Shown piece by piece: positions 9,222 to 28,075 of a stretch of 60,252 nucleotides of DNA. Position 1 is the stretch's first letter. Each line of letters opens with the position of its first letter. The stretch lies in the IMG/VR virus record IMGVR_UViG_2562617057_000007. One strand, given 5' to 3'. The notes beneath the pieces were generated by a model. The model had not been told where the DNA came from. It was given only the letters and a program-made list of their open reading frames with translations, and did not search any database. A program made the translations under genes and the position numbers. The DNA is from a virus. Its lineage: Duplodnaviria; Heunggongvirae; Uroviricota; Caudoviricetes.

Positions 9222-10592
9222 ATGTCTCAGATGTATATACTCGACCAGTTGAGTGTTGCTCCAAACCGGCGGATTTGGACATTGGTTGACGCCACTACTA
9301 ACTTACCGCTTCTGTTTCCACTTCTCTTTCTCATTGATCGCTTGTCTTTACGTTCCGAATCCACGCAGTCATCTACGCTACAGGCTCTAAAATTTTTTTA
9401 TGAGTACTGGTATCAAAAACATGATGTTACTTTCTGTTTGAGCTTCCATCTGTCTGGATACAATCCTTCGATTGCAATTAGTGAGATTGAAGCATTTCTT
9501 CATTATCTTGAATCAGGAAAGCTTGTGTTGCCTACACTCGGACGCGCTGTAATTAGCAAGCACAATACAAATATTAATCATGTACATGCAGTCTGCCGTT
9601 TTATCAACTATCTGATCAATACTTACGTTTCTCCTCGTTATATGGATGGTACCCCAAAAGAACTTTCTCGTTACGCTTTACAATTATCCAGGCGTTTGTC
9701 GGCCTATCGTTCGGATTTTCGACCCAGCAAGCAAAAGCATTCAAACAAACATTTTAATAGCCTTACAGCAGACATGGTCAGGAAATTTTATGAGATTATT
9801 AGACCAGAATCGTCTTCCAAGCCAAATCCTATTAATCCCTTCCCTACTGGAGAAATTCAATTCAGAAATTATTTAATCTGTCGCCTTCTTTTGAATTATG
9901 GTTTGCGTGTAAGTGAATTGCTTTTGTTAGAAAAAAACTCAATTAAACCTAACATCAAGGGCGTACAGTTCAGTATCATAGTGACGTCTGTAGATGATGA
10001 TGTTAGAGATCCAAGAAAGAGATTACCGTCATTAAAAAACTCATGGGCGCATCGAGTTTTAGCGTTAGACATAAATGATTACAACCACTTAAAAACATAC
10101 ATTGATAAAATAAGGAAAAAAACCTCTCATAGTTTCATATTCACTTCAACTAAAAATAACACTCCACCACTATCGTATCACTCTATATATGATATTTTCT
10201 CAAAAATTGATTGTGCTTTCAAAAAAGAGTACCCGCAATTCAGTGATGAAGAAAGCATTGATTCTGTAGTTAGCATAACCCCACACGTAGCTCGCCATAC
10301 ATGGGCTTATTTGATCTTAAAGAGAGTCTATACTGATAAATATCAGTCTGTTATGAGAAGTTGCCAGCTTGCAGGAGTTGATTTCGCTATTGCAGGTCTG
10401 ATGAGTGAAGCCAAAGATGAGCTCCGTCTTTTAGGTGGATGGAGCCATAATAGCCGCATGCCAGAACTCTATGCCCGCCGTTTTCTTTCTGAGCGAGCTA
10501 ATTTTTCCAATCTCACGCGTATTGCTGCTGATGCCTCAGAAGATGATTTTTTTTCATCTATACATCAAGCGTTTAGGGAAACGACCAAGTGA
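9222..10592 (+). CDS. tyrosine recombinase-like protein 1
   Basis: 456 aa; GLRVSE (box I Arg), HVARHTWA, GGWSH, ELYARRF (catalytic Tyr). Confidence 0.8.
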   Translation: MSQMYILDQLSVAPNRRIWTLVDATTNLPLLFPLLFLIDRLSLRSESTQSSTLQALKFFYEYWYQKHDVTFCLSFHLSGYNPSIAISEIEAFLHYLESGKLVLPTLGRAVISKHNTNINHVHAVCRFINYLINTYVSPRYMDGTPKELSRYALQLSRRLSAYRSDFRPSKQKHSNKHFNSLTADMVRKFYEIIRPESSSKPNPINPFPTGEIQFRNYLICRLLLNYGLRVSELLLLEKNSIKPNIKGVQFSIIVTSVDDDVRDPRKRLPSLKNSWAHRVLALDINDYNHLKTYIDKIRKKTSHSFIFTSTKNNTPPLSYHSIYDIFSKIDCAFKKEYPQFSDEESIDSVVSITPHVARHTWAYLILKRVYTDKYQSVMRSCQLAGVDFAIAGLMSEAKDELRLLGGWSHNSRMPELYARRFLSERANFSNLTRIAADASEDDFFSSIHQAFRETTK

Positions 10593-12139
10593 ATAAAATC
10601 TTAGAGATAGAAAGCGAAGATAAGCATGTCTTTTTTTCACGTGAACAAATGATAAAAATAAAAAGTCTTTACATCCCTTCTAAAATACACTTGAGGTCAG
10701 CTGATGTTTTTGATGACAAGAATATATTTGCAGAGACTAATGATTGGGTGTTCCATTATTCAGGTAGCCAGTCACACATTAATTTCAAAACGGATGATTA
10801 CACCACAAAAATAATGAAGTATATATTATTCCATTATGCATCTTCAAAGTCTCCTGGGACTATATATCGTGTGCATCGTGCATGGATAGGCGCAATTGAA
10901 TATACTTCGAAACAAGGAATGTTTAACTTTCAATTGTTAAGATCTTTCCTTGAAAAGGAAAGTGTATTGCCCACACATTTTTTCTATATTATTTTTGGCC
11001 TTAAAATTCTTTGTATAGATGAATTTCCGGGTTTTACTTTAGATGACTACGAAGACCTTGAATTCATTCCTCGCCCTAATTCAAATGATTGGAGTGTATA
11101 TCAAAACATAGATAATATCTTTGAACCAGTTGAAAAGAACATGATCAGCAAAGGCCTTTTTGAAATGGCTACCGCCATATCACGAGGCAGAAATTACAAT
11201 CTGGTAGATCTTCGCAATGCCACTGTTTTGGGTCTATGTTACGTCACAGGTGGCCGTCCAGTTCAGTTAGCTAAATTGGCTGCTGGTGACTTTCGAATCG
11301 ATACTTGTAATACGACTACAGGGTTGGTTCGTTATAGCGTTCTTTTACCTTATGCTAAACAAAGGCACGTCACTACTGATCGGTTGATTCTGGCGCTCCC
11401 GCCGGAAATCGGTGTACTGGTTAACCATTATATAGATAAAGCAAGATTGTTGCCTACCGATAAGATGTTTGATATGGGGGCATCAGCAACTAAGTTTGTC
11501 TCTCAGTCTATTAGACAAACCATTCTAAACTTCAGCCCCCCTGATTATCAAGATGCCGTTGCTCGCGGAGAAGCCGCTCCCCCATCAATCACGCCAACTG
11601 ATTTACGCCACAACGTTGGTCACTCACTGGCTATGCAAGGAGTAAGTGCCGAAGAGATTGCTCACATTCTTGGTCATTCATCCTTAGTTGTAGCAAAGCA
11701 CTACATCTTGGCGACACCGGCCTTGGCCTTGATACGCGCTAAAGCACTAGGTTCTAACCCCGTGTGGCAAAACATGGTGGCTATGATGATGACAGGGAAG
11801 TTGGTCCCTTCAAAAGAATGGCAAGGTCGACGAGTAGTTGGCATGGTTGGTGATCGATTACACTATGAGATTGGTGGCTGTGCGAGAGGCGATGACGAAT
11901 GCCCTTTCTGTGAAGTCCGTTGCTGCTATGGTTGCTTATATTATCGCCCTTTCCTTGATGGCCAACACCAGGATGTACTAGATAGCATCTTGAAAGAAGT
12001 CGATGAGCTGATAGCTGTGTCAGATAGTGTAGGCAATGCTCACAATCCACTAATTTCTATCCACGAGACGACGCAAATAGAGATCAAGTCAGTGATTGCC
12101 CGTTGTCATTTGCATAACGTCAGAGGTTGTGGGAGATGA
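10589..12139 (+). CDS. tyrosine recombinase-like protein 2
   Basis: 516 aa; GGRPVQ, DLRHNVGHSLA, HILGHSS, KHYI; GTG start overlapping stop of upstream gene. Confidence 0.8.
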   Translation: MNKILEIESEDKHVFFSREQMIKIKSLYIPSKIHLRSADVFDDKNIFAETNDWVFHYSGSQSHINFKTDDYTTKIMKYILFHYASSKSPGTIYRVHRAWIGAIEYTSKQGMFNFQLLRSFLEKESVLPTHFFYIIFGLKILCIDEFPGFTLDDYEDLEFIPRPNSNDWSVYQNIDNIFEPVEKNMISKGLFEMATAISRGRNYNLVDLRNATVLGLCYVTGGRPVQLAKLAAGDFRIDTCNTTTGLVRYSVLLPYAKQRHVTTDRLILALPPEIGVLVNHYIDKARLLPTDKMFDMGASATKFVSQSIRQTILNFSPPDYQDAVARGEAAPPSITPTDLRHNVGHSLAMQGVSAEEIAHILGHSSLVVAKHYILATPALALIRAKALGSNPVWQNMVAMMMTGKLVPSKEWQGRRVVGMVGDRLHYEIGGCARGDDECPFCEVRCCYGCLYYRPFLDGQHQDVLDSILKEVDELIAVSDSVGNAHNPLISIHETTQIEIKSVIARCHLHNVRGCGR

Positions 12140-14498
12140 AAAAAATATAGAGAATTTTGACACTTTTATCGTAGAACAGAAAGCTTGGTTCGAAGAGAAT
12201 CTGGCAGCAGATTTTGCAGAATCATGGGATAGCCTTGTCTGGATATGTGGGAAAAAAGGTTCCGGCTGGTTACGAGGCAATGGTGTTAATGTATTGCGAT
12301 TTGATGAGATTAACCGGCTAAAAGGAATCGATGAACACTATACTGTATCCGATACTTATCAGTTGTTTATGAAAGCCATGCTGGTACTCGTCTATCGAGG
12401 CAGAAATCGCAGCATCTCCCCTGCGGTTGCTATTGCAACTCTGATTATTTTGAAACGCTGGTACTGTGCGCTGATTAAATTAACCGGGCAGACTCATCCC
12501 ATCTATCTGGCTACAGATGTTGTTCGTAGTGCAATGGATACTATGAGTGCAGCATCCAAGCCAGGTGATCCTAACATAGCCAACTACAAGGGGCGTTGCG
12601 TTAAGATTCAAAAATTAGTAAATCATCATGCTTTCACATTGGTAACTCTACATTATGTGTCCGACGAAAATTACACTAACCGGACCAATTTGACCCAGAA
12701 AGCCCGGGAAACAATAGCCCTTAAACACAAGGACAGGCTCGATGATACAGTCACTGATGGTGAAGATGCACTTATTACAATTCGAGGATTCCTCAATATC
12801 GTGTCACTTATCCAGCGTGTAGAAAACGGCACTGAAAAGATAGCGCTCAATTGCCTTCTGCTACTCATCATCACGGGTTTTCGGTCCATTGAAGCATTCA
12901 ATCTCAGGCTGGATGCGTTGGTCAAACGAAAGATAGATAACGCTGATATCAGCAGACGTCTACGCGATAAAGGGTTGCCGGATTATTTTCTTGGCATTCG
13001 CTATGTTGGTGTTAAGGGAGCTGGTGAGCGAACACATTGGGTCGAACCCTTAGCTGTTCCTTTAGTTGAAAACATATTCAAATCGGTTAAGTCACTAACA
13101 TGTGAGTTACGAAAGCATCTCATAAACTTACGTTTAAAAGGATTTGCTGATTATTTACCGGAGGCGATCAGTGATATTGCAGGTGAACTTGTTGAACTTG
13201 ATGATATTGTAGAACACATAGCCCAATCCTCATCAGAGCTTCGGGGGCGTGCGGGATTACGTGATAAAGCATCAAAAGCGTTAGCGAAACGAGGCTGTAT
13301 TCCGACTGAAGTCATTCTTTTTCCAGGTAATGAAAAAAGGAAATATTATTCAAAATCAGACCTTAGTCTTTACCTTAAAAATGAATTTGGTGATAGCAGC
13401 GCAAATACTCCCTGTACTCACTCATGGGTAGAAAACGGCAAAAGATTTGAGATTATGTATGAGGATTTATTGTTCCTTTACCCCAAAGGGTCTATGACGT
13501 TAAAGAGAGCATTGGGGCTAAAAGCAACACCTTTACCACTGAGTAATGCTGGCGTAAACAAGTTTCTCGGTAACGTTGACGGCTATGCTTCAGTCTTCAG
13601 TAAATACAGGCTACTCGAAGATGACGGTCGTCCTACCCAGCTTCGCACTCATATTCCTCGTCACAATATAAACACTTTTCTCGCTATTGCTGAAATTTCA
13701 GACCACTTACAAGCCATGTTGATGGGGCGTGTTGATATTACTCAAAATAAACATTACCAGCATCTGGCTCTTAAGGAGCGCCGAAAGGCTGCTTCTCTTA
13801 TTCCGTTAGTTCCGATCATACAGGAGCAGACAACACCAATTACTATTGACGCTGATACACCGCTCGATGTGGTAAAACAAAGTGGTATGATGATATTTAG
13901 CAGTACGAAGAATCTGGAAACCAACATAAAGGCGAACCTACATACCTTCGATAATCGTGACGATGTTGCAGGATTCATTGAGGCGTCGTTAGACGATGGA
14001 TTATTCGAAGACATAGCCGCTGCGTTCGAAGATATTAGTAAAAATGAAGGGCCATCGCAAGCGACTGAAATGGTGCATAGGCACGCGGTGCTGCATCCAT
14101 TGAAATTGGGCTCCTGCATGAGAGACGTAAACTTGTGGGGATGCCCTTATCGAATGAAGTGTCAGGCATTGAAGCCCTGTGAGCATTTCACGTTAACAGG
14201 TCGTATTGATGAATACTCCACAATTGAAGCCAAAGGTCGTGCATTAAACGAGGCTACGTTTGCTTTTGAACAGTATACCGCGACCTTTCCGGGTAACCAG
14301 CTAATGCAGGGCAATATCGAAGAAAATCTAGCACAACTAGATGCCTTAACTAAGCAATTACGCAGCCGCTCAAACTCGCTGGAAGCAATCCCCTCTCAGG
14401 TGGTCCTGTCCGGAGAGATAAAAGTAGAAGGTGAAATTCGTACTCTGGCTCAACTATTTGCCCTCGAGTACCAAAAAATCAAACAAGGAGAAGACTGA
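12096..14498 (+). CDS. tyrosine recombinase-like protein 3 (large, 800 aa)
   Basis: TGFRSIE, IPRHNINTFLA, MGRVDITQNKHYQH motifs; start uncertain (ATG 12096 or GTG 12129). Confidence 0.75.
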   Translation: MPVVICITSEVVGDEKNIENFDTFIVEQKAWFEENLAADFAESWDSLVWICGKKGSGWLRGNGVNVLRFDEINRLKGIDEHYTVSDTYQLFMKAMLVLVYRGRNRSISPAVAIATLIILKRWYCALIKLTGQTHPIYLATDVVRSAMDTMSAASKPGDPNIANYKGRCVKIQKLVNHHAFTLVTLHYVSDENYTNRTNLTQKARETIALKHKDRLDDTVTDGEDALITIRGFLNIVSLIQRVENGTEKIALNCLLLLIITGFRSIEAFNLRLDALVKRKIDNADISRRLRDKGLPDYFLGIRYVGVKGAGERTHWVEPLAVPLVENIFKSVKSLTCELRKHLINLRLKGFADYLPEAISDIAGELVELDDIVEHIAQSSSELRGRAGLRDKASKALAKRGCIPTEVILFPGNEKRKYYSKSDLSLYLKNEFGDSSANTPCTHSWVENGKRFEIMYEDLLFLYPKGSMTLKRALGLKATPLPLSNAGVNKFLGNVDGYASVFSKYRLLEDDGRPTQLRTHIPRHNINTFLAIAEISDHLQAMLMGRVDITQNKHYQHLALKERRKAASLIPLVPIIQEQTTPITIDADTPLDVVKQSGMMIFSSTKNLETNIKANLHTFDNRDDVAGFIEASLDDGLFEDIAAAFEDISKNEGPSQATEMVHRHAVLHPLKLGSCMRDVNLWGCPYRMKCQALKPCEHFTLTGRIDEYSTIEAKGRALNEATFAFEQYTATFPGNQLMQGNIEENLAQLDALTKQLRSRSNSLEAIPSQVVLSGEIKVEGEIRTLAQLFALEYQKIKQGED

Positions 14499-14941
14499 TG
14501 CGGGGTAAAGAATTGGATACTCAGATTGAGCATGAGCTCCAGCTGATGTTGATTGAAGGGTTTGATAAATCGCCAATTTCAGCTAAAAGCTTACACGCCA
14601 GACTTAAGTCAAAAGGCATCATCAATGGCGGCTTAAGTACATTAAGTAGCATTGAACGAAAACGTCTTATTGCAGCCTATGTCGATCAACAGCTATCTCC
14701 CCTAAATCTTCGCCCCAAAGAAAAGCAGCAGTATGTGAATCGTAAGACCCGTCAGGCTTTGCTTGGTCGTAATCAGCAGCTTCAGGAAGAGAACAAAGAG
14801 CTGCGCGAACAGCTAGCACAGAATACCTTGTCATTAATTGAAATTGTCAAAGCGGTAAAAATCAATACGGTTATACCGGTAGAAAGCCTTCTTGCTCCGC
14901 ACTTGATCATGGAGCTACACGAAAGGAAAAAAAATCAATGA
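14498..14941 (+). CDS. small coiled-coil protein, fourth gene of recombinase operon
   Basis: 147 aa; ATG overlaps TGA of upstream gene (TGATG); heptad-like QQLQEENKELREQLAQN segment. Confidence 0.6.
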   Translation: MRGKELDTQIEHELQLMLIEGFDKSPISAKSLHARLKSKGIINGGLSTLSSIERKRLIAAYVDQQLSPLNLRPKEKQQYVNRKTRQALLGRNQQLQEENKELREQLAQNTLSLIEIVKAVKINTVIPVESLLAPHLIMELHERKKNQ

Positions 14942-14971
14942 TAGGTATAGCGCTATATTTGTACAACAAAG

Positions 14972-15166
14972 TCATGAATAAACGCCTTGCTCTATTCGAA
15001 AAATGAGCATGGCAACTTTCAATACCCCCTCTTCTGAGTCCATTATTTCAGAGGGCATTTTCCACTGTAATGCTCTGTTTGGTTCATTGCACCAGTTTAA
15101 TGCTGCACTTTCGTTACCTTCAAAAAGATCAATAGCCTTTTGTATAACATCATTTTTTGTCAGCAT
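14972..15166 (-). CDS. DUF2384-like antitoxin C-terminal domain (Xre/MbcA/ParS type)
   Basis: ends with ...ALQWKMPSEIMDSEEGVLKVAMLIFRIEQGVYS, matching the DUF2384 RIExGVY signature; overlaps upstream HTH ORF in a different frame. Confidence 0.6.
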   Translation of the reverse strand: MLTKNDVIQKAIDLFEGNESAALNWCNEPNRALQWKMPSEIMDSEEGVLKVAMLIFRIEQGVYS

Positions 15167-15482
15167 ATTTTACACCTGAAGACGTTTTTAGTGCTTCGAT
15201 AAGGTTACTTCGCTCTTCCTCTGTCATTCGGGAGATGAGTAATGCAAGTTCTGCTGTTGTCTGATCATCACAAAAAAAATAGTTCAACGGTACGTTTAAC
15301 TCTGCCGCCATTCGTCGAAGCGTATCAATATCGGGGACATGGCGTCCTTTCTCATAATGATTCATACGACTGCTAGCCGATGCGGGATCAAAGCCAACAA
15401 GGAGACCCAGAGAGCGCTGTGATAAACCCGCCCTGCATCTCGCTTCCTTAAGTCGTTCTGGTATTGGATTTTTTTCAGACAC
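15150..15482 (-). CDS. HTH XRE-family DNA-binding protein
   Basis: IPERLKEARCRAGLSQRSLGLLVGFDPASASSRMNHYEKGRHVPDIDTLRRMAAELNVPLNYFF is a canonical Cro/C1-type HTH. Confidence 0.7.
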   Translation of the reverse strand: MSEKNPIPERLKEARCRAGLSQRSLGLLVGFDPASASSRMNHYEKGRHVPDIDTLRRMAAELNVPLNYFFCDDQTTAELALLISRMTEEERSNLIEALKTSSGVKYADKK

Positions 15483-15869
15483 TGATTCATCTTCATTGGC
15501 CTCGAATGCTTAGATTGTCTAAGTATCTGTCATTGTTGTATACTTAGCAATCCTAAGTTAACAGCCTTGTTTTGTCATATGAATAGTCGAGTAACCAACC
15601 CTGAGTCGTACATATTTTCTGCAATCATCTTAATTGGCAAAGATAACTTCACCAGTAACGAAGTAGCAAAAATTCTTATCGAGCGATTTTCACTTCCGAA
15701 AAATTATTTAAAGGCAAAAGCTTTTGCTTATAACCAAATTCAATCCCTGGTTAGAAAAGGATTATTAAACAAAGTAAGAAAAACGTAACCGTCTCATTTA
15801 AACCGTCTTTCGCCTCCCTTTCCTGTTTCCGATACTAATGTCCATTTTCGCAGTAAAGGGACATTTAAG

Positions 15870-16511
15870 ATGAATGCACGAAAAGCGGTACTGGCAGACA
15901 ATCCGGAATTGATCCTGCGTGTGCTACAACTGAGATTTGACGAGTCACTGTCGTACCCGCGCATTTCTGCGCAGACCGGTATCAGCAAAACCGCCATTTT
16001 TTCTCTGGTGAGGCGATTTCACCAGGTATTCACTGACTGGCCTCTTTCCGGGGAATATTCCTGCGTGCAACTGGCCCGGGCTTTGTTCCCGGGGCGATAC
16101 CCTTCAGCCCCGACAGTAACTCAGACTGTGAAAACAGAGAAAAACCGCCGGAACCGATTTTCACCGGAGTTTAAATGGAGACTTGTTCAGCAAACTCTTT
16201 TACCCGGTGCCTGTGTCGCACAAATAGCTCGTGAGAACGGAATCAACGATAACCTGCTCTTTAACTGGCGGCATCTCTGGCGTAACGGCGGCCTGCAGCC
16301 GACCGGCGAACATGAAACATCGCTACTTCCCGTGACGTTAACTCCGGAGCCGGATAATAAAATCCCGGCACCAGTGCAGATACCTGAACAGATGCCCGAC
16401 AGTCTGTGCTGTGAGCTGGTTCTGCCGGCCGGAACTCTCAGGCTGAAAGGTGAACTGACACCGGCGTTATTACAGACACTTATCCGCGAAATGAAAGGGA
16501 GCAGCCACTGA
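15870..16511 (+). CDS. IS66-family accessory protein OrfA (copy 1)
   Basis: 213 aa, identical to 20728..21369. Confidence 0.8.
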   Translation: MNARKAVLADNPELILRVLQLRFDESLSYPRISAQTGISKTAIFSLVRRFHQVFTDWPLSGEYSCVQLARALFPGRYPSAPTVTQTVKTEKNRRNRFSPEFKWRLVQQTLLPGACVAQIARENGINDNLLFNWRHLWRNGGLQPTGEHETSLLPVTLTPEPDNKIPAPVQIPEQMPDSLCCELVLPAGTLRLKGELTPALLQTLIREMKGSSH

Positions 16512-16612
16512 TGTCAGCGCCAGTGATATAAGACGGTAATTCGCCATTTGGATTGTCCGCTCCACCCAACATGTTGTTTCCTTAAGGTTCTCACACCAGA
16601 AAGGACATCAAC

Positions 16613-18582
<1,970 letters not shown>

Positions 18583-18644
18583 CGAAAGTATTTAGCGGGC
18601 ATGAAAATGGCAAATAACGGTCAAACATCGTGGCGTTGACACTG

Positions 18645-18992
18645 ATGATATCTCTCCCTGCCGGTTCGCGTATCTGGCTGGTTGCCGGTATCACCGACAT
18701 GCGAAATGGTTTTAACGGCCTGGCATCAAAAGTTCAGAACGTCCTGAAGGATGACCCGTTCTCCGGGCATCTGTTCATCTTCCGCGGACGCCGGGGTGAC
18801 CAGATAAAAGTGTTGTGGGCTGACAGTGACGGACTGTGCCTCTTCACCAAACGCCTGGAGCGGGGCCGCTTCGTCTGGCCGGTTACCCGTGACGGCAAGG
18901 TGCACCTTACTCCGGCTCAGTTATCTATGCTTCTTGAAGGTATCAACTGGAAGCACCCGAAACGAACGGAACGCGCTGGCATCCGCATATAA
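18645..18992 (+). CDS. IS66-family OrfB (copy 1)
   Basis: MISLPAGSRIWLVAG..., identical to 21369..21716; separated from orfA by the IS21 insertion. Confidence 0.8.
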   Translation: MISLPAGSRIWLVAGITDMRNGFNGLASKVQNVLKDDPFSGHLFIFRGRRGDQIKVLWADSDGLCLFTKRLERGRFVWPVTRDGKVHLTPAQLSMLLEGINWKHPKRTERAGIRI

Positions 18993-19011
18993 CCCGTTGT
19001 AAAGTGAGGAT

Positions 19012-20583
19012 ATGGACACCTCACTTGCTCATGAGAATGCCCGCCTGCGGGCACTGTTGCAGACGCAACAGGACACCATCCGCCAGATGGCGAAATACAA
19101 CCGCCTGCTCTCACAGCGGGTGGCGGCTTATGCTTCCGAAATCAACCGGCTGAAGGCGCTGGTTGCGAAACTGCAGCGCATGCAGTTCGGTAAAAGCTCA
19201 GAAAAACTTCGCGCTAAAACCGAACGACAGATACAGGAAGCACAGGAGCGAATCAGCGCACTTCAGGAAGAAATGGCGGAAACGCTGGGTGAGCAATATG
19301 ACCCGGTACTGCCATCCGCCCTGCGCCAGTCTTCAGCCCGTAAACCGTTACCGACCTCACTTCCCCGTGAAACCCGGGTCATCCGGCCGGAAGAGGAATG
19401 CTGTCCGGCCTGTGGTGGTGACCTCAGTCCTCTGGGGTGTGATGTGTCAGAGCAACTGGAGCTTATCAGCAGCGCTTTTAAGGTTATCGAAACACAACGT
19501 CCGAAACTGGCCTGTTGCCGGTGCGACCATATCGTGCAGGCACCAGTACCTTCAAAACCCATTGCACGCAGTTATGCCGGAGCGGGGCTTCTGGCTCATA
19601 TCGTCACCGGGAAGTATGCAGACCATCTGCCGTTATACCGCCAGTCAGAAATATACCGTCGTCAGGGCGTGGAACTGAGCCGCGCCACGCTGGGGCGCTG
19701 GACCGGTGCCGTTGCTGAACTGCTGGAGCCGCTGTATGACGTGCTGCGCCAGTATGTACTGATGCCCGGTAAAGTCCATGCGGATGATATCCCCGTTCCG
19801 GTCCAGGAGCCGGGCAGTGGTAAAACAAGAACTGCCCGGCTGTGGGTCTATGTCCGTGATGACCGTAACGCCGGTTCACAGATGCCCCCGGCGGTCTGGT
19901 TCGCGTACAGCCCGGACCGGAAAGGTATCCATCCACAAAATCACCTGGCCGGTTACAGCGGTGTGCTTCAGGCCGATGCTTACGGTGGTTACCGGGTGTT
20001 ATACGAATCCGGCAGAATAACGGAAGCCGCGTGTATGGCTCATGCCCGGAGAAAAATCCACGATGTGCATGCAAGAGTGCCCACCGACATCACCACGGAA
20101 GCCCTGCAGCGTATCGGTGAACTGTATGCCATCGAGGCAGAGGTCCGGGGCTGTTCAGCAGAACAGCGTCTGGCGGCAAGAAAAGCCAGAGCCGCGCCAC
20201 TGATGCAGTCACTGTATGACTGGATACAGCAACAGATGAAAACACTGTCGCGTCACTCGGATACGGCAAAAGCGTTCGCATACCTGCTGAAACAGTGGGA
20301 TGCACTGAACGTGTACTGCAGTAATGGCTGGGTGGAAATCGACAACAACATTGCAGAGAACGCCTTACGGGGAGTGGCCGTAGGCCGGAAAAACTGGCTC
20401 TTCGCGGGTTCTGACAGCGGTGGTGAACATGCTGCGGTGTTGTACTCGCTGATCGGCACATGCCGTCTGAACAATGTGGAGCCAGAAAAGTGGCTGCGTT
20501 ACGTCATTGAACATATCCAGGACTGGCCGGCAAACCGGGTACGCGATCTGTTGCCCTGGAAAGTTGATCTGAGCTCTCAGTAA
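19012..20583 (+). CDS. IS66-family transposase OrfC (copy 1)
   Basis: 523 aa, N-terminal leucine-zipper-like region, Cys cluster CPACGG...CCRCDH, identical to copy 2. Confidence 0.85.
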
Positions 20584-20727
20584 ATATCAATACGGTTCTG
20601 GCGAGCCGCTTACGAAAAACAGGCGTGTATCAATATTTATACGTAACCGTCTCATTTAAACCGTCTTTCGCCTCCCTTTCCTGTTTCCGATACTAATGTC
20701 CATTTTCGCAGTAAAGGGACATTTAAG

Positions 20728-21369
20728 ATGAATGCACGAAAAGCGGTACTGGCAGACAATCCGGAATTGATCCTGCGTGTGCTACAACTGAGATTTGACG
20801 AGTCACTGTCGTACCCGCGCATTTCTGCGCAGACCGGTATCAGCAAAACCGCCATTTTTTCTCTGGTGAGGCGATTTCACCAGGTATTCACTGACTGGCC
20901 TCTTTCCGGGGAATATTCCTGCGTGCAACTGGCCCGGGCTTTGTTCCCGGGGCGATACCCTTCAGCCCCGACAGTAACTCAGACTGTGAAAACAGAGAAA
21001 AACCGCCGGAACCGATTTTCACCGGAGTTTAAATGGAGACTTGTTCAGCAAACTCTTTTACCCGGTGCCTGTGTCGCACAAATAGCTCGTGAGAACGGAA
21101 TCAACGATAACCTGCTCTTTAACTGGCGGCATCTCTGGCGTAACGGCGGCCTGCAGCCGACCGGCGAACATGAAACATCGCTACTTCCCGTGACGTTAAC
21201 TCCGGAGCCGGATAATAAAATCCCGGCACCAGTGCAGATACCTGAACAGATGCCCGACAGTCTGTGCTGTGAGCTGGTTCTGCCGGCCGGAACTCTCAGG
21301 CTGAAAGGTGAACTGACACCGGCGTTATTACAGACACTTATCCGCGAAATGAAAGGGAGCAGCCACTGA
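20728..21369 (+). CDS. IS66-family accessory protein OrfA (copy 2)
   Basis: 213 aa; stop overlaps orfB start (TGATG). Confidence 0.8.
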   Translation: MNARKAVLADNPELILRVLQLRFDESLSYPRISAQTGISKTAIFSLVRRFHQVFTDWPLSGEYSCVQLARALFPGRYPSAPTVTQTVKTEKNRRNRFSPEFKWRLVQQTLLPGACVAQIARENGINDNLLFNWRHLWRNGGLQPTGEHETSLLPVTLTPEPDNKIPAPVQIPEQMPDSLCCELVLPAGTLRLKGELTPALLQTLIREMKGSSH

Positions 21370-21716
21370 TGATATCTCTCCCTGCCGGTTCGCGTATCTG
21401 GCTGGTTGCCGGTATCACCGACATGCGAAATGGTTTTAACGGCCTGGCATCAAAAGTTCAGAACGTCCTGAAGGATGACCCGTTCTCCGGGCATCTGTTC
21501 ATCTTCCGCGGACGCCGGGGTGACCAGATAAAAGTGTTGTGGGCTGACAGTGACGGACTGTGCCTCTTCACCAAACGCCTGGAGCGGGGCCGCTTCGTCT
21601 GGCCGGTTACCCGTGACGGCAAGGTGCACCTTACTCCGGCTCAGTTATCTATGCTTCTTGAAGGTATCAACTGGAAGCACCCGAAACGAACGGAACGCGC
21701 TGGCATCCGCATATAA
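21369..21716 (+). CDS. IS66-family OrfB (copy 2)
   Basis: 115 aa. Confidence 0.8.
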   Translation: MISLPAGSRIWLVAGITDMRNGFNGLASKVQNVLKDDPFSGHLFIFRGRRGDQIKVLWADSDGLCLFTKRLERGRFVWPVTRDGKVHLTPAQLSMLLEGINWKHPKRTERAGIRI

Positions 21717-21735
21717 CCCGTTGTAAAGTGAGGAT

Positions 21736-23307
21736 ATGGACACCTCACTTGCTCATGAGAATGCCCGCCTGCGGGCACTGTTGCAGACGCAACAGGACAC
21801 CATCCGCCAGATGGCGAAATACAACCGCCTGCTCTCACAGCGGGTGGCGGCTTATGCTTCCGAAATCAACCGGCTGAAGGCGCTGGTTGCGAAACTGCAG
21901 CGCATGCAGTTCGGTAAAAGCTCAGAAAAACTTCGCGCTAAAACCGAACGACAGATACAGGAAGCACAGGAGCGAATCAGCGCACTTCAGGAAGAAATGG
22001 CGGAAACGCTGGGTGAGCAATATGACCCGGTACTGCCATCCGCCCTGCGCCAGTCTTCAGCCCGTAAACCGTTACCGACCTCACTTCCCCGTGAAACCCG
22101 GGTCATCCGGCCGGAAGAGGAATGCTGTCCGGCCTGTGGTGGTGACCTCAGTCCTCTGGGGTGTGATGTGTCAGAGCAACTGGAGCTTATCAGCAGCGCT
22201 TTTAAGGTTATCGAAACACAACGTCCGAAACTGGCCTGTTGCCGGTGCGACCATATCGTGCAGGCACCAGTACCTTCAAAACCCATTGCACGCAGTTATG
22301 CCGGAGCGGGGCTTCTGGCTCATATCGTCACCGGGAAGTATGCAGACCATCTGCCGTTATACCGCCAGTCAGAAATATACCGTCGTCAGGGCGTGGAACT
22401 GAGCCGCGCCACGCTGGGGCGCTGGACCGGTGCCGTTGCTGAACTGCTGGAGCCGCTGTATGACGTGCTGCGCCAGTATGTACTGATGCCCGGTAAAGTC
22501 CATGCGGATGATATCCCCGTTCCGGTCCAGGAGCCGGGCAGTGGTAAAACAAGAACTGCCCGGCTGTGGGTCTATGTCCGTGATGACCGTAACGCCGGTT
22601 CACAGATGCCCCCGGCGGTCTGGTTCGCGTACAGCCCGGACCGGAAAGGTATCCATCCACAAAATCACCTGGCCGGTTACAGCGGTGTGCTTCAGGCCGA
22701 TGCTTACGGTGGTTACCGGGTGTTATACGAATCCGGCAGAATAACGGAAGCCGCGTGTATGGCTCATGCCCGGAGAAAAATCCACGATGTGCATGCAAGA
22801 GTGCCCACCGACATCACCACGGAAGCCCTGCAGCGTATCGGTGAACTGTATGCCATCGAGGCAGAGGTCCGGGGCTGTTCAGCAGAACAGCGTCTGGCGG
22901 CAAGAAAAGCCAGAGCCGCGCCACTGATGCAGTCACTGTATGACTGGATACAGCAACAGATGAAAACACTGTCGCGTCACTCGGATACGGCAAAAGCGTT
23001 CGCATACCTGCTGAAACAGTGGGATGCACTGAACGTGTACTGCAGTAATGGCTGGGTGGAAATCGACAACAACATTGCAGAGAACGCCTTACGGGGAGTG
23101 GCCGTAGGCCGGAAAAACTGGCTCTTCGCGGGTTCTGACAGCGGTGGTGAACATGCTGCGGTGTTGTACTCGCTGATCGGCACATGCCGTCTGAACAATG
23201 TGGAGCCAGAAAAGTGGCTGCGTTACGTCATTGAACATATCCAGGACTGGCCGGCAAACCGGGTACGCGATCTGTTGCCCTGGAAAGTTGATCTGAGCTC
23301 TCAGTAA
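21736..23307 (+). CDS. IS66-family transposase OrfC (copy 2)
   Basis: 523 aa. Confidence 0.85.
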
Positions 23308-23713
23308 ATATCAATACGGTTCTGGCGAGCCGCTTACATTTATACTCAGTCACATCAGAATTTAATATCGCAACAGAATGCGTGGAATTAATTGAGGCAA
23401 CCCCAAAGTCTTCCTGTCAACTTGTTTCAAGTGCTACCAACCATGAACACAGAAATGTAAATATCCAAATAAAGTCTCTTATTGAAAAATACAGCAGTGA
23501 GTTGGCGAAAGTATCAGGAGCAAAGGAGATTTATGAAGAATTGATAGTTGCTGTGCCGAGCAGGGAAAATGAATTCAGGAAGCTTTCTCTTGAACAAGAG
23601 AAAAAACACATCAAGATAAATGAAAAAATAAATACATTAATTGGAATTATTAATCAATCTCTTGCAGTAACGCAATGAATTTTAACAAGTATTTGAAGAT
23701 AAATGGAGTCATG

Positions 23714-23986: not shown

Positions 23987-24742
23987 CTACATATCAGCCA
24001 ACAGCATCCCGGCTATCCCGTCCAGGCGTTTTTTTACCTTTTCCCAACCCGGCATAACCTGCCCCATCAGCCGGTAAAATTTCTCGCTGTGATTGTGCTC
24101 AGCGACATGGCATAACTCATGGAGCAATACATAGTCGATGCATTCCGAGGAAGCCTTTACCAGCCACGGGTTAAGTGTCAGGCAGCCTTTTGCAGAACAG
24201 TTTCCCCATTGCGTCTGCATGGCTCGTAAACGTATCGGAGGACGCTCACTTACCCATAAGGTTTGCGGTATCAGTAAATCCAGTCTGCGTTGAAACACAT
24301 CTCTGGCGCGTTCCCGATACCACTCAACCAGCACCGCCTTAACGCGTTCAGCGGATTTGTGTCTGACGGTGACTTCCAGACGGCCCCGCAACATTTTCAC
24401 TTTTTGCGTAACAGCAGCATCTTCTGTTACTTTCAACTGGTATTGTTTGCCAAGATAGTAATGGCTTTCGCCACTCACATACTGACGCGGAACGATATGC
24501 GTTTGTTGCTCCCTGAAGTCGCGTAGTTGCTGGTATATCCAGCGCCCTCGCTTTTTCAGCGCAGATATCACATCCAGCTCCGGCGTTCCGGGTGGTACAG
24601 ATGCGACTACCCGGCAGTCCGGATGAACCTTGATAAGTATCCTGCCTTTAACAACCTGCCGTGGTACACACTGAACCACGATGGTTTCATCACCATAAAC
24701 AAAACGTACAGCATTCATAGATAGTGACTTTTTCTCACTCAT
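23987..24742 (-). CDS. M48/DUF45-type zinc metallopeptidase (YgjP-like)
   Basis: 251 aa with HELCH zinc-binding motif; start overlaps hsdR stop by 4 nt. Confidence 0.75.
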   Translation of the reverse strand: MSEKKSLSMNAVRFVYGDETIVVQCVPRQVVKGRILIKVHPDCRVVASVPPGTPELDVISALKKRGRWIYQQLRDFREQQTHIVPRQYVSGESHYYLGKQYQLKVTEDAAVTQKVKMLRGRLEVTVRHKSAERVKAVLVEWYRERARDVFQRRLDLLIPQTLWVSERPPIRLRAMQTQWGNCSAKGCLTLNPWLVKASSECIDYVLLHELCHVAEHNHSEKFYRLMGQVMPGWEKVKKRLDGIAGMLLADM

Positions 24743-27700
24743 GATTTCATCAAACCAACGCGCAGGATCTGTATGATGGTTTCAACGATACGGTTTACCT
24801 GGTTCATTCCAGCACCGATCTCTCGACAGGCAGTAAACAGTCGCGGCAACAGGCTTGTCTTAACGGCTTTCTCGATATCCTGAGGATTGAGGGAATTTTC
24901 CGCAACCGCTTTGACAATAATAGTGTCCACTTCGAAAGCCAGCTTCGTCCATTTATGCTGAACCTGATCATCGTTTACCGCGAAAACCTCAGGTAGCTCT
25001 TTTTTAAATACTCCGTAGTATGCCTGCGCATGTTTGTTTACGGCCAGCGCATCCGGGATGTCGCTGAGTTTGCGGGCTTCCACCTGCGCCTCAAACTCGC
25101 GGAAAAGGAGATATTGCTTCAGCGGATGGTCGAACAGTTTTTCAGTCTCTTCAATAACCATACGCAGGAGTTTTGAGAATGCCTCCTGAGCATAGGGATC
25201 GTCGCACAGTTCATGTTCAATCATCTTCGTGACGCGGGTTTTAATGATGTCGGTCTCATTGCGGGTTTTGTTGTTATCCCACTCTTCCGGCTTTTCAGTT
25301 TTACCCATCTTGCCCACTTCATATACGCCATCCGGTTCACGAACCGCGACACCAGTAACATGCTTATTCAGCAGTTTTTTCACCTGTTCAGCGTAGTCGT
25401 CATAATTGACCTGCTCACCACTGACCTGCATCGCCCACTGGCGCAGGCTGGACATCTGTTTTACGGTTTCTTTATAGATATTTCGGTCTTGTTCCGTAAA
25501 GCTCTTGTCGGTGAAGAAGGTGGCGGACTGCAGCGCTACTTTCAGGCATCCGGCAAAGGCCGTTAACACCTCGAAGAAATCATCACGGGTTTTCTGATGG
25601 ATATCGACCATCTCTCCGTCACGTTCTTCCATTTTAGGCACCAGAACTGCACGTAACTGCTCAGTATCATTCTTGTTTTTAACACCGGCAAATATGGCCC
25701 ACAACTGGTTATACAGATGCGGCAGACGCTTGTATTCAGAGCTCATGGCGCTGTACAGCCCATCAATATCCTTGATGTCATATCCTCCCTGAGTTCGGGA
25801 GGCAAGATCCTGATATTTACCGATAGTCGTGTCCAGTTCAGCCAAAATGCCGCGATAATCAATCAGCAGACCAAACTTTTTCAGTGGATGCAGTCGGTTC
25901 ACCCGGGCAATCGCCTGGATAAGATTATGGGACTTAAGAGGTTTGTCGATATACAGCACGGTATTCTTCGGTTCATCAAACCCGGTGAGCAATTTATCAA
26001 CGACGATCAACAATTTAAGCTTATCATCGGTATCGAAGCGGCTAATGATATTACGGGTATACACAGACTCATCCTGCGTGCCGACATTATCCTTCCACCA
26101 TTTCGTCACTTCCGGCAGTTTGCTTTCATCCACCTCGGTGTTCCCTTCCCGGGTATCCGGCGGGCTGATAACGACAGCTGACTCAAACAACCCGGCTTCA
26201 TCAAGATACTTTTTATATTTGATGGCGGAAATCTTGCTGTCGCAGGCAAGTTGGCCTTTCAGCCCCTCATCAATATTCTTCGAGAAGTGCATGGCGATAT
26301 CTAATGCAATCAGCCGGATGCGGTCATCTGCACTATAAACCTCACCCTTACGGGCATATTTACGCTTAAGGTCGGCTTTTTGCGCTTCGCTTAACCCATC
26401 GGTAATACGATCAAACCATGCATCTATTGCCCGGTCGTTTACCTCAAGATCAGGAATACGTTCCTCGTAAAGCAGAGGCGTCACCGCCTGATCTTCTACC
26501 GCTCGCTGCATGGTATAAGCGTGGACAATCGGCCCGAATTTATTGGTGGTCTTATCTTCTTTCAGCAAAGGTGTACCGGTAAATGCCACAAAAGCAGCAT
26601 TCGGCAGGGCCAGTTTCATACGCACATGGTTTTCGCCACCCTGGCTGCGGTGTCCTTCATCAATCAGTACGATGATGTCGGGGCTGGTATTGACGCATTC
26701 AGGAAGTTTTGTCGCTGAATTAAATTTCTGGATCAGGGTGAAGATAATACGTTCTTTACCGGAGCCAATCTGTTCCGCCAACATCTGCCCGGATGTCGCC
26801 ATTGCATTGGCTTTGTCTTTTTTCCCGACCAACTCGCCGCCGGAAGCAAAGGTACCGCTGAGCTGTTCTTCAAGATCGATACGGTCCGTCACCACCACAA
26901 TACGACACTGCTTCAGGCTGTCATGAAGAATCAGCGCCTTACTGAGGAACACCATGGTATAAGATTTACCGGAACCCGTGGTATGCCAGATGACACCACC
27001 TTCCCTGCCGCCGTCTGATCTACGGGTACTGATGCGTTCCAGTAGTCTTTTAATGCCGAACACCTGCTGATAGCGGGCGACAATCTTCCCGGTCTTTTTA
27101 TCAAACAGGGTGAAAAAGCGCGTCATCTCCAGCAGACGTTCCGGCGAAAGCAGACTGATGAGCAGTTTGTCCTGTCCACTAACGGCCAGTTCACCCCCGG
27201 CGATTAACTGCTGATACCAGTTGAGATCGGCTGACGGACGATGATCAAATAACGCATGAATCTGTTCAGTCGATAACGGATGGTTGCGCAGAGCATACAT
27301 CTGCGCATCCGTAATATCTTCTTCCCGCCATGCCGCCCAGAATTTCATTGGCGTATGGCAGGTACCGTAGCGACCGTCATGCCCGTTAATCGAAAGCAAT
27401 AGCTGGCTATAGGCAAACAGCTGCGGGATTTCATCGTTGAACTGGTTGCGGATACTCTGAGATATCCCTTCGTCAATGGTTGGCCCTTTCTTACCGTGAC
27501 CTGCCGGGCTTTTCGCTTCAATGACTGCCAGCGGGATACCATTCACAAAGCAGACAATATCCGGTCTGCGGGTTTCGACACCGCCTGACCGCAATACCGT
27601 AAATTCTTCGGTAAAGTGAAACTGGTTATTTTCCGGATGTTCCCAGTCAATCAGCGCAATGGTGGGGTTCACCTTCTTGCCATCGACAAACTCCGTGACG

Positions 27701-28026
27701 GCGATACCGTAGAGCAGATGGTTATACATCCGCTCATTGGCTTTCAGCAGTCCTTCATTCAGCGCCGGAGAACAGACCTGCGATATCAGGTTATCCAGCG
27801 CCTTTTCCGATAACTGGCAGATTTTGCCACCCGCCATAAAGGAACGCTTCGAAAGCTCTTCACGCAGAACCGGACGCAGCACCACCTCATCCTGTTTATA
27901 GCCCCGGTAATCCATAATCTGTTTCGGGGATAAAAACGTCCAGCCGAGGCTGGTCAGTAACGTCAGTGCCGGAATTTTGGCGCTGTATTCTTCCTGGAAT
28001 TTTGGCGTGTACGTCTGGTTCATCAT
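24739..28026 (-). CDS. hsdR: Type I restriction enzyme R subunit
   Basis: 1095 aa; Walker A TGSGKS, DEGHR (DEAH-box) motif, size typical of HsdR. Confidence 0.9.
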   Translation of the reverse strand: MMNQTYTPKFQEEYSAKIPALTLLTSLGWTFLSPKQIMDYRGYKQDEVVLRPVLREELSKRSFMAGGKICQLSEKALDNLISQVCSPALNEGLLKANERMYNHLLYGIAVTEFVDGKKVNPTIALIDWEHPENNQFHFTEEFTVLRSGGVETRRPDIVCFVNGIPLAVIEAKSPAGHGKKGPTIDEGISQSIRNQFNDEIPQLFAYSQLLLSINGHDGRYGTCHTPMKFWAAWREEDITDAQMYALRNHPLSTEQIHALFDHRPSADLNWYQQLIAGGELAVSGQDKLLISLLSPERLLEMTRFFTLFDKKTGKIVARYQQVFGIKRLLERISTRRSDGGREGGVIWHTTGSGKSYTMVFLSKALILHDSLKQCRIVVVTDRIDLEEQLSGTFASGGELVGKKDKANAMATSGQMLAEQIGSGKERIIFTLIQKFNSATKLPECVNTSPDIIVLIDEGHRSQGGENHVRMKLALPNAAFVAFTGTPLLKEDKTTNKFGPIVHAYTMQRAVEDQAVTPLLYEERIPDLEVNDRAIDAWFDRITDGLSEAQKADLKRKYARKGEVYSADDRIRLIALDIAMHFSKNIDEGLKGQLACDSKISAIKYKKYLDEAGLFESAVVISPPDTREGNTEVDESKLPEVTKWWKDNVGTQDESVYTRNIISRFDTDDKLKLLIVVDKLLTGFDEPKNTVLYIDKPLKSHNLIQAIARVNRLHPLKKFGLLIDYRGILAELDTTIGKYQDLASRTQGGYDIKDIDGLYSAMSSEYKRLPHLYNQLWAIFAGVKNKNDTEQLRAVLVPKMEERDGEMVDIHQKTRDDFFEVLTAFAGCLKVALQSATFFTDKSFTEQDRNIYKETVKQMSSLRQWAMQVSGEQVNYDDYAEQVKKLLNKHVTGVAVREPDGVYEVGKMGKTEKPEEWDNNKTRNETDIIKTRVTKMIEHELCDDPYAQEAFSKLLRMVIEETEKLFDHPLKQYLLFREFEAQVEARKLSDIPDALAVNKHAQAYYGVFKKELPEVFAVNDDQVQHKWTKLAFEVDTIIVKAVAENSLNPQDIEKAVKTSLLPRLFTACREIGAGMNQVNRIVETIIQILRVGLMKS

Positions 28027-28075
28027 TAATCCTTTTCTTTCTGGCGCTACTCGCTACTGGTCACATGAAGATTCA

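Follow-up and report, generated by a model that had tools for sequence, protein, structure and literature searches.

Chromosomal anti-addiction antitoxins are known antitoxins that lack a toxin of their own. On mobile elements, orphan antitoxin-like enzymes of phages are reported to counter DarTG1 (PMC11825919). Among toxin-antitoxin loci of the RES-Xre, MbcTA and ParST kind, knaAT, a RES-Xre locus of Klebsiella plasmids, has been shown experimentally to be an addiction module (PMC10896132). A different group of Xre-type proteins is represented by the restriction-modification controller (C) protein C.Csp231I, the operators of which have a 5-5-5 layout with CTAAG and CTTAG pentamers and a spacer of approximately 18 bp (PMC4321490). 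C.Csp231I-like Xre proteins of about 100 aa regulate their own expression and bring about zygotic induction in Tn7-like elements, and related regulators of about 100 aa are located in I-F3b Tn7-CRISPR-Cas transposons (bioRxiv 10.1101/2020.07.02.184150). Finally, GInt islands are characterised by an operon of four genes, which encode two tyrosine recombinases, a large protein with a recombinase fold but no good catalytic match, and a small protein (PMC5385486, PMC10214605, PMC10121019).

In the window (the whole stretch of DNA that was analysed, 60,252 nucleotides), two minus-strand genes, encoding a 110-aa helix-turn-helix (HTH) regulator and a 64-aa DUF2384 protein (hereafter the mini-antitoxin), are located next to the recombinase operon of a GInt and opposite a VspR-like gene. 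The features of the region are as follows (coordinates, strand, description and basis).

14498..14941, plus strand: ginD-like gene, 147 aa, last gene of the GInt operon, given as context and outside the module (ORF, profiles, synteny)
14972..15166, minus strand: mini-antitoxin gene, 64 aa, ATG start, second gene of the operon (ORF; RefSeq WP_001300905.1)
15150..15161, minus strand: 3' end of the HTH gene, GAC AAA AAA TGA with an A6 run, the sole spot where a +1 shift could join both ORFs (sequence)
15150..15482, minus strand: HTH regulator gene, 110 aa, GTG start, first of the two operon genes (ORF; RefSeq WP_001300511.1)
15173..15177, minus strand: Shine-Dalgarno-like AGGTG, 6 nt 5' of the mini-antitoxin ATG (direct sequence reading)
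15509..15523, no strand: operator 1, CTTAG-ATTGT-CTAAG, perfect 5-5-5 palindrome, proximal to the HTH gene (motif search)
15543..15557, no strand: operator 2, CTTAG-CAATC-CTAAG, distal to the HTH gene, with a 19-bp spacer to operator 1 (motif search)
15579..15784, plus strand: N-terminal fragment of the VspR-like gene (full-length product 186 aa; homology to the uninterrupted copy in L001 ends at 15784)
23338..23678, plus strand: C-terminal fragment of the VspR-like gene, beyond two IS66-family copies (BLAST of L001 against the window; profile E=5e-26)

The recombinase operon (9222-14941) consists of four genes with products of 456, 516, 800 and 147 aa in the GInt gene order, and its synteny was found in about 20 loci. 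Phage_integrase matches relatives of the first two operon genes, and those of the third only marginally. As the initial annotation had pointed out, this operon ends convergently with the mini-antitoxin gene (at 14941, 30 nt from the stop codon of the latter); no terminator-like site was found in the 30-nt gap between the two. In relatives the island adjoins hipBA and carries defence cargo, as published for E. coli GInts. The module of regulator, VspR-like gene and mini-antitoxin, on the other hand, is not among the four defining gin genes, and no mention of it was found by term searches of the GInt papers. It is also present in Tn7-like elements and elsewhere: in 27 of 80 species loci the HTH gene adjoins tns genes (Tn7-like). 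A scan of viral contigs gave two matches, both of them GInt fragments and not phages.

The two ORFs reported by the initial annotation, of 110 and 64 aa on the minus strand and overlapping by 17 nt (15150-15166) in different frames, were confirmed, with the mini-antitoxin in frame +1 when the HTH frame is taken as 0. They are two intact adjacent genes and not one broken antitoxin gene. Firstly, the same pair, an HTH protein of 107-110 aa followed by a DUF2384 protein of 63-69 aa, is present as two separate genes in Pectobacterium, Citrobacter, Kluyvera and metagenomes, with overlaps of 14 or 17 nt and with varied junction sequences; natural two-gene homologues are what the initial annotation itself had named as refuting its reading. 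Secondly, the mini-antitoxin gene has an AGGTG-N6-ATG start of its own, the AGGTG element of which is retained in most relatives (alignment), and it is preceded, two codons ahead of its ATG, by a TAA stop in its own frame (15170-15172). Thirdly, RefSeq calls both genes intact, and no fused HTH-DUF2384 homologue, that is, no one-piece counterpart of the pair, was found among the HTH matches listed (the best 120 of 679) or the 27 matches of the mini-antitoxin.

The assignment of an Xre-type HTH to the first product held, with an HTH_3 match (E=7e-9) and further matches to HTH_19 and HTH_31 in the profile search; the same search gave no match of the 110-aa product to PF20432 (Xre-like HTH), which in one-piece antitoxin relatives is located immediately N-terminal of PF09722. 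Nor does it resemble the first 89 residues of the plasmid antitoxin that comes closest (E=1.3). A profile of the family of the 110-aa protein matched, in the PDB, 3LFP (C.Csp231I; E=2e-25, residues 4-92 of 98) and 4O8B (E=2e-27, nearly full length), and the protein matched the PADLOC Control_protein model (E=6e-26, positions 2-93 of 101). All HTH homologues among the best 120 of 679 are stand-alone proteins of approximately 100-112 aa, none of them with PF09722, and the gene has a dN/dS of 0.05-0.18 in most pairs. As predicted from these matches, the 110-aa protein is a stand-alone controller-type regulator of the C.Csp231I class, and a nearly full-length match covers both its HTH core and its additional C-terminal helices. 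It resembles C.Csp231I and the Xre regulators of Tn7-like elements also in that its gene adjoins the transposition or recombination genes of a mobile element. It differs from the C.Csp231I class in that no type II restriction-modification operon is present, a mini-antitoxin rather than an endonuclease being encoded downstream (the restriction-modification system of the island is of type I, at a distance of more than 8 kb), and in its pairing, at one end of a GInt, with a VspR-like gene that is transcribed divergently.

A further likeness to the C.Csp231I class is the presence, 5' of the regulator's own gene, of two 15-bp palindromes of 5-5-5 layout built of CTTAG and CTAAG pentamers and separated by a long spacer; the pentamer order (CTTAG..CTAAG here, CTAAG..CTTAG as printed for C.Csp231I) and the spacer (19 versus 18 bp) differ. 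Operators 1 and 2 are the only two matches to CTTAG-N5-CTAAG in the 60-kb window, and the motif search found no further copy there, for example 5' of ginA. Operator 2 overlaps the -10-like hexamer of a promoter-like site that faces the HTH gene. A pair of exact sites 30-38 nt apart was present in 69 of the 80 species loci; operator 1 is invariant across enterobacterial and marine loci, and from Escherichia to Vibrio, Shewanella and Marinomonas both sites stay unchanged between diverged flanks. An Rfam scan of 14700-15900 gave no meaningful RNA element.

The gene on the other side of the operators, divergent from the HTH gene, is cut in the window by an IS66-family insertion at 15784/15785, and a 32-nt piece of it (20611-20642) lies between both IS66-family copies. 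Its N-terminal fragment was recognised by the profile of a 182-aa VspR-like family (E=1e-21), members of which are paired with the HTH gene in 69 of the 80 loci. A homologue in L005, tied to the intact gene by phmmer (E=1e-24), carries the Pfam domains VspR_N and VspR_C. In the VspR-like protein the N-terminus resembles a winged-helix DNA-binding domain and the C-terminus a coiled coil; a profile search of the PDB returned designed coiled coils only. By analogy with C.Csp231I, a dimeric 110-aa regulator would bind both CTTAG-N5-CTAAG palindromes within the divergent promoter region of 96 bp, and would in this way set the levels of the regulator itself and of the opposite VspR-like gene. The switch would operate as in restriction-modification systems and Tn7-like transposons: expression would be strong when the element reaches a cell without the regulator, and would later be shut off. 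The C-like regulator, double operator and VspR-like gene can be regarded as a portable switch common to GInts and Tn7-like transposons, and as a handle on the control of these poorly understood islands.

For the second gene, the DUF2384 signature noted by the initial annotation was borne out by a match to PF09722 (Xre_MbcA_ParS_C) at E=8.6e-10 over profile positions 2-51 of 51. The product also matches NCBIfam NF049845, a RES/Xre antitoxin model (E=4e-14, positions 55-112 of 112). It starts 6-10 residues ahead of the PF09722 domain and has no N-terminal Xre-like HTH. In a 147-aa plasmid antitoxin, the last 58 residues (90-147) align with the mini-antitoxin, ungapped, at 59% identity and 78% positives. 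More than 1,300 enterobacterial plasmids carry this 147-aa antitoxin (Klebsiella accounts for 1,122), and its gene overlaps and precedes a RES NAD+ phosphorylase gene; a RES gene likewise follows the gene of P0152, the closest one-piece metagenomic relative. The close homologues, in turn, are all stand-alone proteins of 57-74 aa (27 matches), with orthologues of 63-69 aa in other genera, and stand-alone DUF2384 proteins of 60-75 aa constitute a recurrent architecture. Other stand-alone minis (P0159 and P0161-P0164) are mostly on contigs too short for informative context. An AlphaFold2 model of the mini-antitoxin built from a 12-sequence alignment was of low confidence (pLDDT 67.8) and gave no Foldseek match in the PDB below E=6, and a sequence search of the PDB gave weak matches only (8GUG_B, E=0.24; ParS 6D0H, E=0.55). 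From its domain content, the mini-antitoxin is predicted to be a headless antitoxin of the RES antitoxin kind that consists of the toxin-binding domain only.

A toxin gene beside the pair was, as the initial annotation had stated, lacking. The annotation of the closest relatives shows neither a RES nor a ParT gene within 8 kb, and a RES probe had no match in the window or in approximately 100 loci, although, being a single sequence, this probe had limited sensitivity. The cargo genes beside the module vary and include no consistent toxin. Compared with RES-Xre, MbcTA and ParST loci, the mini-antitoxin is alike in matching the toxin-binding PF09722 domain over its full length and in its 59% identity to the C-terminus of a plasmid RES antitoxin. 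It is unlike their antitoxins in having no Xre-like HTH in the same chain, in that no toxin gene was found downstream of it or in the island, and in being co-transcribed with an unrelated regulator and frequently lost. With the orphan antitoxins of mobile elements it shares that it is an antitoxin-type protein without a toxin of its own that could neutralise a toxin made elsewhere; it differs from those of phages in that its carrier is an integrative island. Of the earlier description as a frameshifted orphan antitoxin, the likeness to an orphan antitoxin therefore stands, while the frameshifted half of one gene does not.

Taken together, we favour as somewhat probable the reading that a headless RES-type antitoxin and a controller-type regulator are encoded together in a small operon on the cargo side of a GInt, at its end, and that the mini-antitoxin probably acts in trans. 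Its translation would begin at its own ATG, behind its own Shine-Dalgarno sequence, and be coupled to the end of the HTH gene. Most likely it would neutralise, by binding them, NAD+-degrading toxins of the RES family that are produced elsewhere in the cell. Among the candidate targets is the RES-Xre addiction module that is so common on enterobacterial plasmids; its neutralisation would shield the host of the island from killing, whether post-segregational or abortive. Cross-neutralisation at 59% identity is plausible, but it is not assured, since toxin-antitoxin pairs tend to be specific. If the mini-antitoxin does neutralise the RES toxins of the very common addiction modules on Klebsiella and enterobacterial plasmids, an integrative island would be interfering with plasmid maintenance or with NAD+-depleting defence. 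More speculatively, and with a good deal of doubt on our part, the controller-protein switch of mobile islands such as GInts may yield a burst of mini-antitoxin on arrival, which would disarm NAD+-depleting toxins of the RES type encoded by plasmids or defence systems already resident in the cell, making the mini-antitoxin an anti-addiction or anti-defence establishment factor. Stand-alone DUF2384 minis near C-like or VspR-like regulators and CBASS may then represent a class of trans-acting modulators that has gone unrecognised in defence islands. A headless mini-antitoxin beside a controller regulator is unusual. Toxin-antitoxin finders and annotation pipelines call such a gene an antitoxin; here it is neither a pseudogene nor half of a toxin-antitoxin pair, and the "Xre" gene beside it encodes a controller-type regulator of the mobile element.

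The alternative that survives best, although we consider it unlikely, is that the mini-antitoxin is a co-regulator (an anti- or co-repressor) that binds the HTH or the VspR-like protein and tunes the island switch, DNA binding and partner binding being split over separate polypeptides. Such a role would agree with the fact that the mini-antitoxin always accompanies the pair of HTH and VspR-like genes, inside and outside GInts, next to cargo without a constant toxin. In Pectobacterium, moreover, another mini-like DUF2384 gene is located directly behind the gene of a VspR-like regulator, and in E. coli another mini lies directly upstream of a CBASS operon (cyclase and 4TM). However, traces of DUF2384 are confined to some 10 of the 80 species-representative loci, most modules of HTH and VspR-like genes having no such gene, and the switch thus works without a mini-antitoxin. 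The DUF2384 domain is, furthermore, known only for toxin binding, and the closest relatives of the mini-antitoxin are genuine RES antitoxins.

The history of the gene bears on a second alternative, by which the mini-antitoxin is a functionless relic of a RES-Xre cassette that landed by the regulator and is still open by chance in this lineage. The gene was inactivated independently at least 4-5 times, by a nonsense codon, by loss of the start codon together with a 10-nt deletion, and by 1-nt deletions (alignment); it is annotated as intact in approximately one quarter of sampled E. coli loci, and some GInt lineages have no mini at all. It evolves much faster than the HTH gene, amino acid identity to the Pectobacterium copy being 80% against 96% for the HTH protein, and in the pair formed by the window and Pectobacterium its dN/dS is 0.95. 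All of this speaks for a relic. Yet lineages with saturated synonymous sites have retained the reading frame, its start context and its overlap with the stop codon of the HTH gene, dN/dS is 0.1-0.36 in most pairs (with saturated dS), 18 of the 64 positions are invariant among close homologues, and the module has also been relocated, with an intact mini-antitoxin, to a non-GInt context. We regard a relic as quite improbable; the mini-antitoxin gene is an accessory, fast-evolving add-on that has been lost by many island lineages.

It is very unlikely that the mini-antitoxin is instead the cis antitoxin of a toxin other than RES, for example the divergent 186-aa VspR-like protein, the two forming a divergent toxin-antitoxin pair under C-protein control. 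The VspR-like gene is indeed the only constant neighbour, the DUF2384 gene behind its Pectobacterium counterpart would fit, and its destruction by IS insertions in the window is a loss that might be tolerated for a toxin. But in the 69 of 80 loci that carry the 182-aa gene, it mostly has no DUF2384 partner, and the winged-helix-like N-terminus, the coiled-coil-like C-terminus and the matches of its homologues to the Pfam families of VspR, a transcription factor, speak for a regulator.

The junction of the two genes was considered in the light of the suggestion that the pair is a programmed split regulator, in the form of a +1 ribosomal frameshift at AAA AAA TGA that would yield an HTH-DUF2384 fusion of approximately 169 aa besides the 110-aa protein. 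Although the mini-antitoxin is in the +1 frame in both types of junction, and A-rich codons beside a stop codon resemble the logic of prfB, we hold this to be extremely improbable. The site is not conserved as a slippery site, the A6 run being interrupted or absent in several intact loci (alignment): the Citrobacter junction reads GACAAGAAATGA (AAG AAA TGA), and the Kluyvera-type junction is unrelated, with a TAA stop. There is no stimulatory Shine-Dalgarno sequence at a prfB-like spacing, only 23 nt are open from the upstream +1-frame TAA to the HTH stop codon, and the mini-antitoxin, as described above, has its own Shine-Dalgarno sequence and ATG.

The initial annotation had observed that the combined size of the two ORFs matches a one-piece antitoxin, which holds only loosely: the sum of approximately 169 aa lies within the range of one-piece relatives (104-212 aa), and exceeds the 112-133 positions of curated models. 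Its proposal that one ancestral Xre/DUF2384 antitoxin gene was broken by a frameshift or a sequencing error, for which this summed size, the overlap in different frames and the A6 run at the junction could be cited, is refuted by the HTH protein being a complete member of a stand-alone family unrelated to the antitoxin N-terminal domain, by the two-gene state kept across genera, and by independent assemblies with an identical junction. In particular, 14960-15490 is 100% identical in an independent E. coli plasmid assembly, and eight E. coli records have an identity of at least 99%.

The HTH ORF and the DUF2384 ORF overlap by 17 nt in different frames (the latter in the +1 frame), as the initial annotation had stated, and ORF and domain searches confirmed the identity of both. 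The 110-aa product matched HTH_3, HTH_19 and HTH_31, while the 64-aa product matched the entire PF09722 model (Xre/MbcA/ParS C-terminal toxin-binding domain; E=8.6e-10) as well as positions 55-112 of 112 in NCBIfam NF049845 (RES/Xre antitoxin; E=4e-14). The recombinase operon ends convergently with the DUF2384 gene across a gap of 30 nt, which also agrees with the first description. Features of the region were located as follows:

9222-14941: GInt-type four-gene recombinase operon (456, 516, 800 and 147 aa)
14972..15166 (-): DUF2384 ORF, 64 aa, ATG start
15150..15482 (-): HTH ORF, 110 aa, GTG start
15509-15523: predicted operator CTTAGattgtCTAAG, perfect 5-5-5 palindrome
15543-15557: predicted operator CTTAGcaatcCTAAG, perfect 5-5-5 palindrome
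15579-15784, 20611-20642 and 23338-23678: fragments of the VspR-like gene
15785-20610: first IS66-family copy, itself interrupted by IS21
16613-17785 and 17782-18582: istA and istB, respectively, of that IS21
20643-23337: second IS66-family copy, intact
23987-31453: type I R-M cargo, M48 metallopeptidase gene and YecA-family gene

The two-ORF layout is not a sequencing artefact, because an independently assembled E. coli plasmid contains the stretch with 100% identity, and RefSeq annotates two intact genes there; an error at the overlap is thereby excluded. The DUF2384 gene has its own Shine-Dalgarno sequence (AGGTG, 6 nt 5' of the ATG), a TAA lies in its frame two codons upstream of the ATG, and alignment of the junction across the compared loci revealed no conserved shift site. 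A frameshifted pseudogene, or a split regulator joined by programmed frameshifting, is essentially excluded. Nor did the proposal of a frameshifted one-piece antitoxin hold, since the best homologues of the HTH protein stand alone and lack PF09722, and since the pair occurs naturally as two genes, also adjoining ginD (the last gene of the recombinase operon), in Pectobacterium brasiliense and Citrobacter freundii.

Rather than half an antitoxin, the 110-aa protein is a complete C-protein-class regulator. Among the best 120 of 679 homologues (E≤1e-3), essentially all were stand-alone proteins of about 100-112 aa and none carried PF09722; their hosts were Enterobacteriaceae, Vibrio, Shewanella, Photobacterium and others, across which the family alignment was ~60% identical. 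Over nearly the full length, the family profile matched the crystal structures 3LFP, which is the restriction-modification controller protein C.Csp231I (E=2e-25), and 4O8B (E=2e-27), and the PADLOC R-M 'Control_protein' model matched the 110-aa protein with E=6e-26. PF20432 was not matched by this protein in the domain search, and comparison with the first 89 residues of the closest plasmid antitoxin showed no similarity (E=1.3). The description 'orphan antitoxin' applies to the small ORF only and not to the HTH ORF, a regulator of the C.Csp231I class.

Assignment to this class was also borne out by the operators, although the gene lies outside any R-M operon. Two perfect 5-5-5 palindromes lie 19 bp apart in the 96 bp that separate the HTH gene from the divergent one; they overlap promoter-like hexamers on both strands and are the only matches to the operator pattern in the 60-kb window. 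In a comparison of 24 loci spanning Escherichia to Vibrio, Aliivibrio, Shewanella, Marinomonas and Oceanospirillum, both palindromes and their spacing were almost invariant while the flanks had diverged. C.Csp231I reportedly recognises two 15-bp sites, CTAAG-N5-CTTAG, 18 bp apart (PMC4321490); the operators in the window have the same pentamers and architecture, but their half-sites stand in the opposite order to that printed, and their spacer is one base longer. [quoted passage not shown]

Clustering of ORFs from 80 species-representative loci, fetched via the HTH alignment, identified a divergent partner of ~182 aa in 69 loci; the exact operator pair was likewise found in 69 of the 80. A ResIII/DEAD helicase of ~459 aa followed the 182-aa protein in 43 loci. 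The module was convergent to Tn7-like tnsA-tnsB-tnsC in 17 loci, upstream of tnsD/tnsE in 10, and at the ginD end of a GInt in 9 enterobacterial loci, as in the window. Tn7-adjacent modules (L021-L090; for example, L056 5369-9854 and L026 5368-9410), comprising regulator, double operator and 182-aa gene and frequently the 459-aa helicase gene as well, were found in Vibrio, Photobacterium, Shewanella, Marinomonas and others, and the combination looks like a portable regulatory cassette common to unrelated kinds of mobile element. Members of the 182-aa family have a winged-helix-like N-terminus and a coiled-coil-like C-terminus; a Pectobacterium member carries Pfam VspR_N and VspR_C and was connected by phmmer to the E. 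coli 186-aa protein (E=1e-24). VspR represses the CBASS operon in V. cholerae VSP-1. In the window, the VspR-like gene is broken by two IS66-family insertions, at points 24 bp apart, and the two copies were 100% identical over 731 and 1,937 nt.

The individual parts of the module are of known kinds; term searches in GInt papers turned up no mention of a controller-type regulator together with a headless RES-type antitoxin and a divergent VspR-like gene bordering the GInt recombination module.

An exhaustive phmmer search with the 64-aa protein returned 264 cluster representatives, the one-piece antitoxins among them being 104-212 aa long; headless DUF2384 is a recurring architecture, because many of the remaining representatives were stand-alone proteins of 60-80 aa. 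Canonical one-piece relatives carry PF20432 (Xre-like-HTH) directly before PF09722, and the search for such relatives and their toxin neighbours that had been recommended placed a RES gene beside each of two antitoxins. The gene for the nearest one-piece representative (P0152, 147 aa, PF20432 plus PF09722) overlaps the RES-domain gene that follows it by 4 nt. On plasmids (tblastn), the 64-aa protein gave an ungapped alignment with the C-terminal 58 residues of a 147-aa antitoxin (59% identity, 78% positives) whose gene overlaps one for a 'RES family NAD+ phosphorylase'; this pair was present on >1,300 plasmids, of which Klebsiella accounted for 1,122 and Citrobacter, Escherichia, Pantoea and Enterobacter, among others, for the rest. 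A RES-Xre pair from a Klebsiella virulence plasmid, knaAT, is experimentally an NAD+-depleting addiction module (PMC10896132). Another DUF2384 protein, P0151 (172 aa, metagenomic), extends beyond the domain into sequence with a RES-like motif (ETASLTMLETLVH), and resembles either an antitoxin-toxin read-through or a toxin-antitoxin pair that has been frameshifted.

No RES-like ORF was detected either in the window or among the fetched loci, in line with the reported lack of an adjoining toxin, and cargo genes vary between islands; any toxin partner would therefore have to be encoded elsewhere. The 64-aa protein shares the domain of the Xre-RES antitoxin family but has neither an HTH in cis nor an adjacent toxin, and should thus not be filed as a toxin-antitoxin system: it is a toxin-binding domain descended from RES antitoxins and translationally coupled to the regulator gene, without DNA-binding domain or cis toxin. 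By analogy with C proteins and Tn7 Xre regulators, the 110-aa regulator would control both its own gene and the opposite VspR-like gene. The DUF2384 protein would be produced together with it and may act in trans against addiction or defence by neutralising RES-type toxins. A less probable role is that of a co-regulator binding one of the two transcription factors. It is suggested by two further small DUF2384 genes. One encodes a different stand-alone 65-aa protein in E. coli (P0160) and is flanked by a DUF7661 gene and, directly downstream, by a type I CBASS operon with cyclase and 4TM effector (L096-L099; for example, L097 4513-7362); the other, a close paralogue of P0160, comes immediately after the VspR-like gene in GInts of Pectobacterium (L005 4668-4991).

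Close homologues of the DUF2384 protein were all stand-alone (27 of 27, 37-74 aa), and pairwise dN/dS was 0.10-0.36 for most pairs, saturated-dS pairs included (HTH gene, 0.05-0.18 for most pairs); the value for the window against Pectobacterium was 0.95. At a locus that is not a GInt and neighbours a transposase-like gene (468 aa), a 107-aa HTH gene overlaps by 14 nt the gene for a 69-aa orthologue (70% identity) behind it, and the junction sequence is unrelated. Alignment of loci showed repeated inactivation: one E. coli lineage has TGA in place of TGG, another has CTG in place of ATG together with internal stops and a deletion of 10 nt, and loci of Klebsiella, Pseudocitrobacter and Enterobacter have single-base deletions. 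The gene was absent from Pectobacterium fontis and from an LSJC7-type GInt, in which the HTH gene and ginD lie just 27 nt apart. The locus occurred in 262 of 5,426 complete E. coli genomes, and an annotated DUF2384 gene in 14 of 59 E. coli records (an evenly spaced sample of locus carriers). The 64-aa ORF is a separate, real and dispensable gene, an accessory that is often lost. We consider it improbable that it is a functionless relic, and that it serves as a cis antitoxin for the VspR-like protein is unlikely.

In E. coli, GInts are known to carry defence systems (PMC10121019), and island cargo in the window includes a type I R-M system (hsdR, hsdS, hsdM). The 23987-31453 segment was 99.9% identical to E. 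coli G3/10, the closest genome, from which the entire regulator, DUF2384 and VspR-like module is deleted. Related islands adjoin hipBA, and their defence cargo differs from one to the next (type I R-M, Gabija-like OLD plus UvrD, NACHT, Hhe). One E. coli chromosome (L002, 1-2612) has a second, decayed ginC-ginD end with HTH and DUF2384 remnants a few kb from the main copy, which suggests tandem or nested GInts. Two IMG/VR contigs filed as viral (L106 and L107) carry the DUF2384 gene at 97% identity; they were rejected as phages, being GInt fragments with gin genes, HTH gene and split VspR-like gene. To the right of the island, a long same-strand ORF run (about 32400-54100) looks like a prophage or other mobile element.
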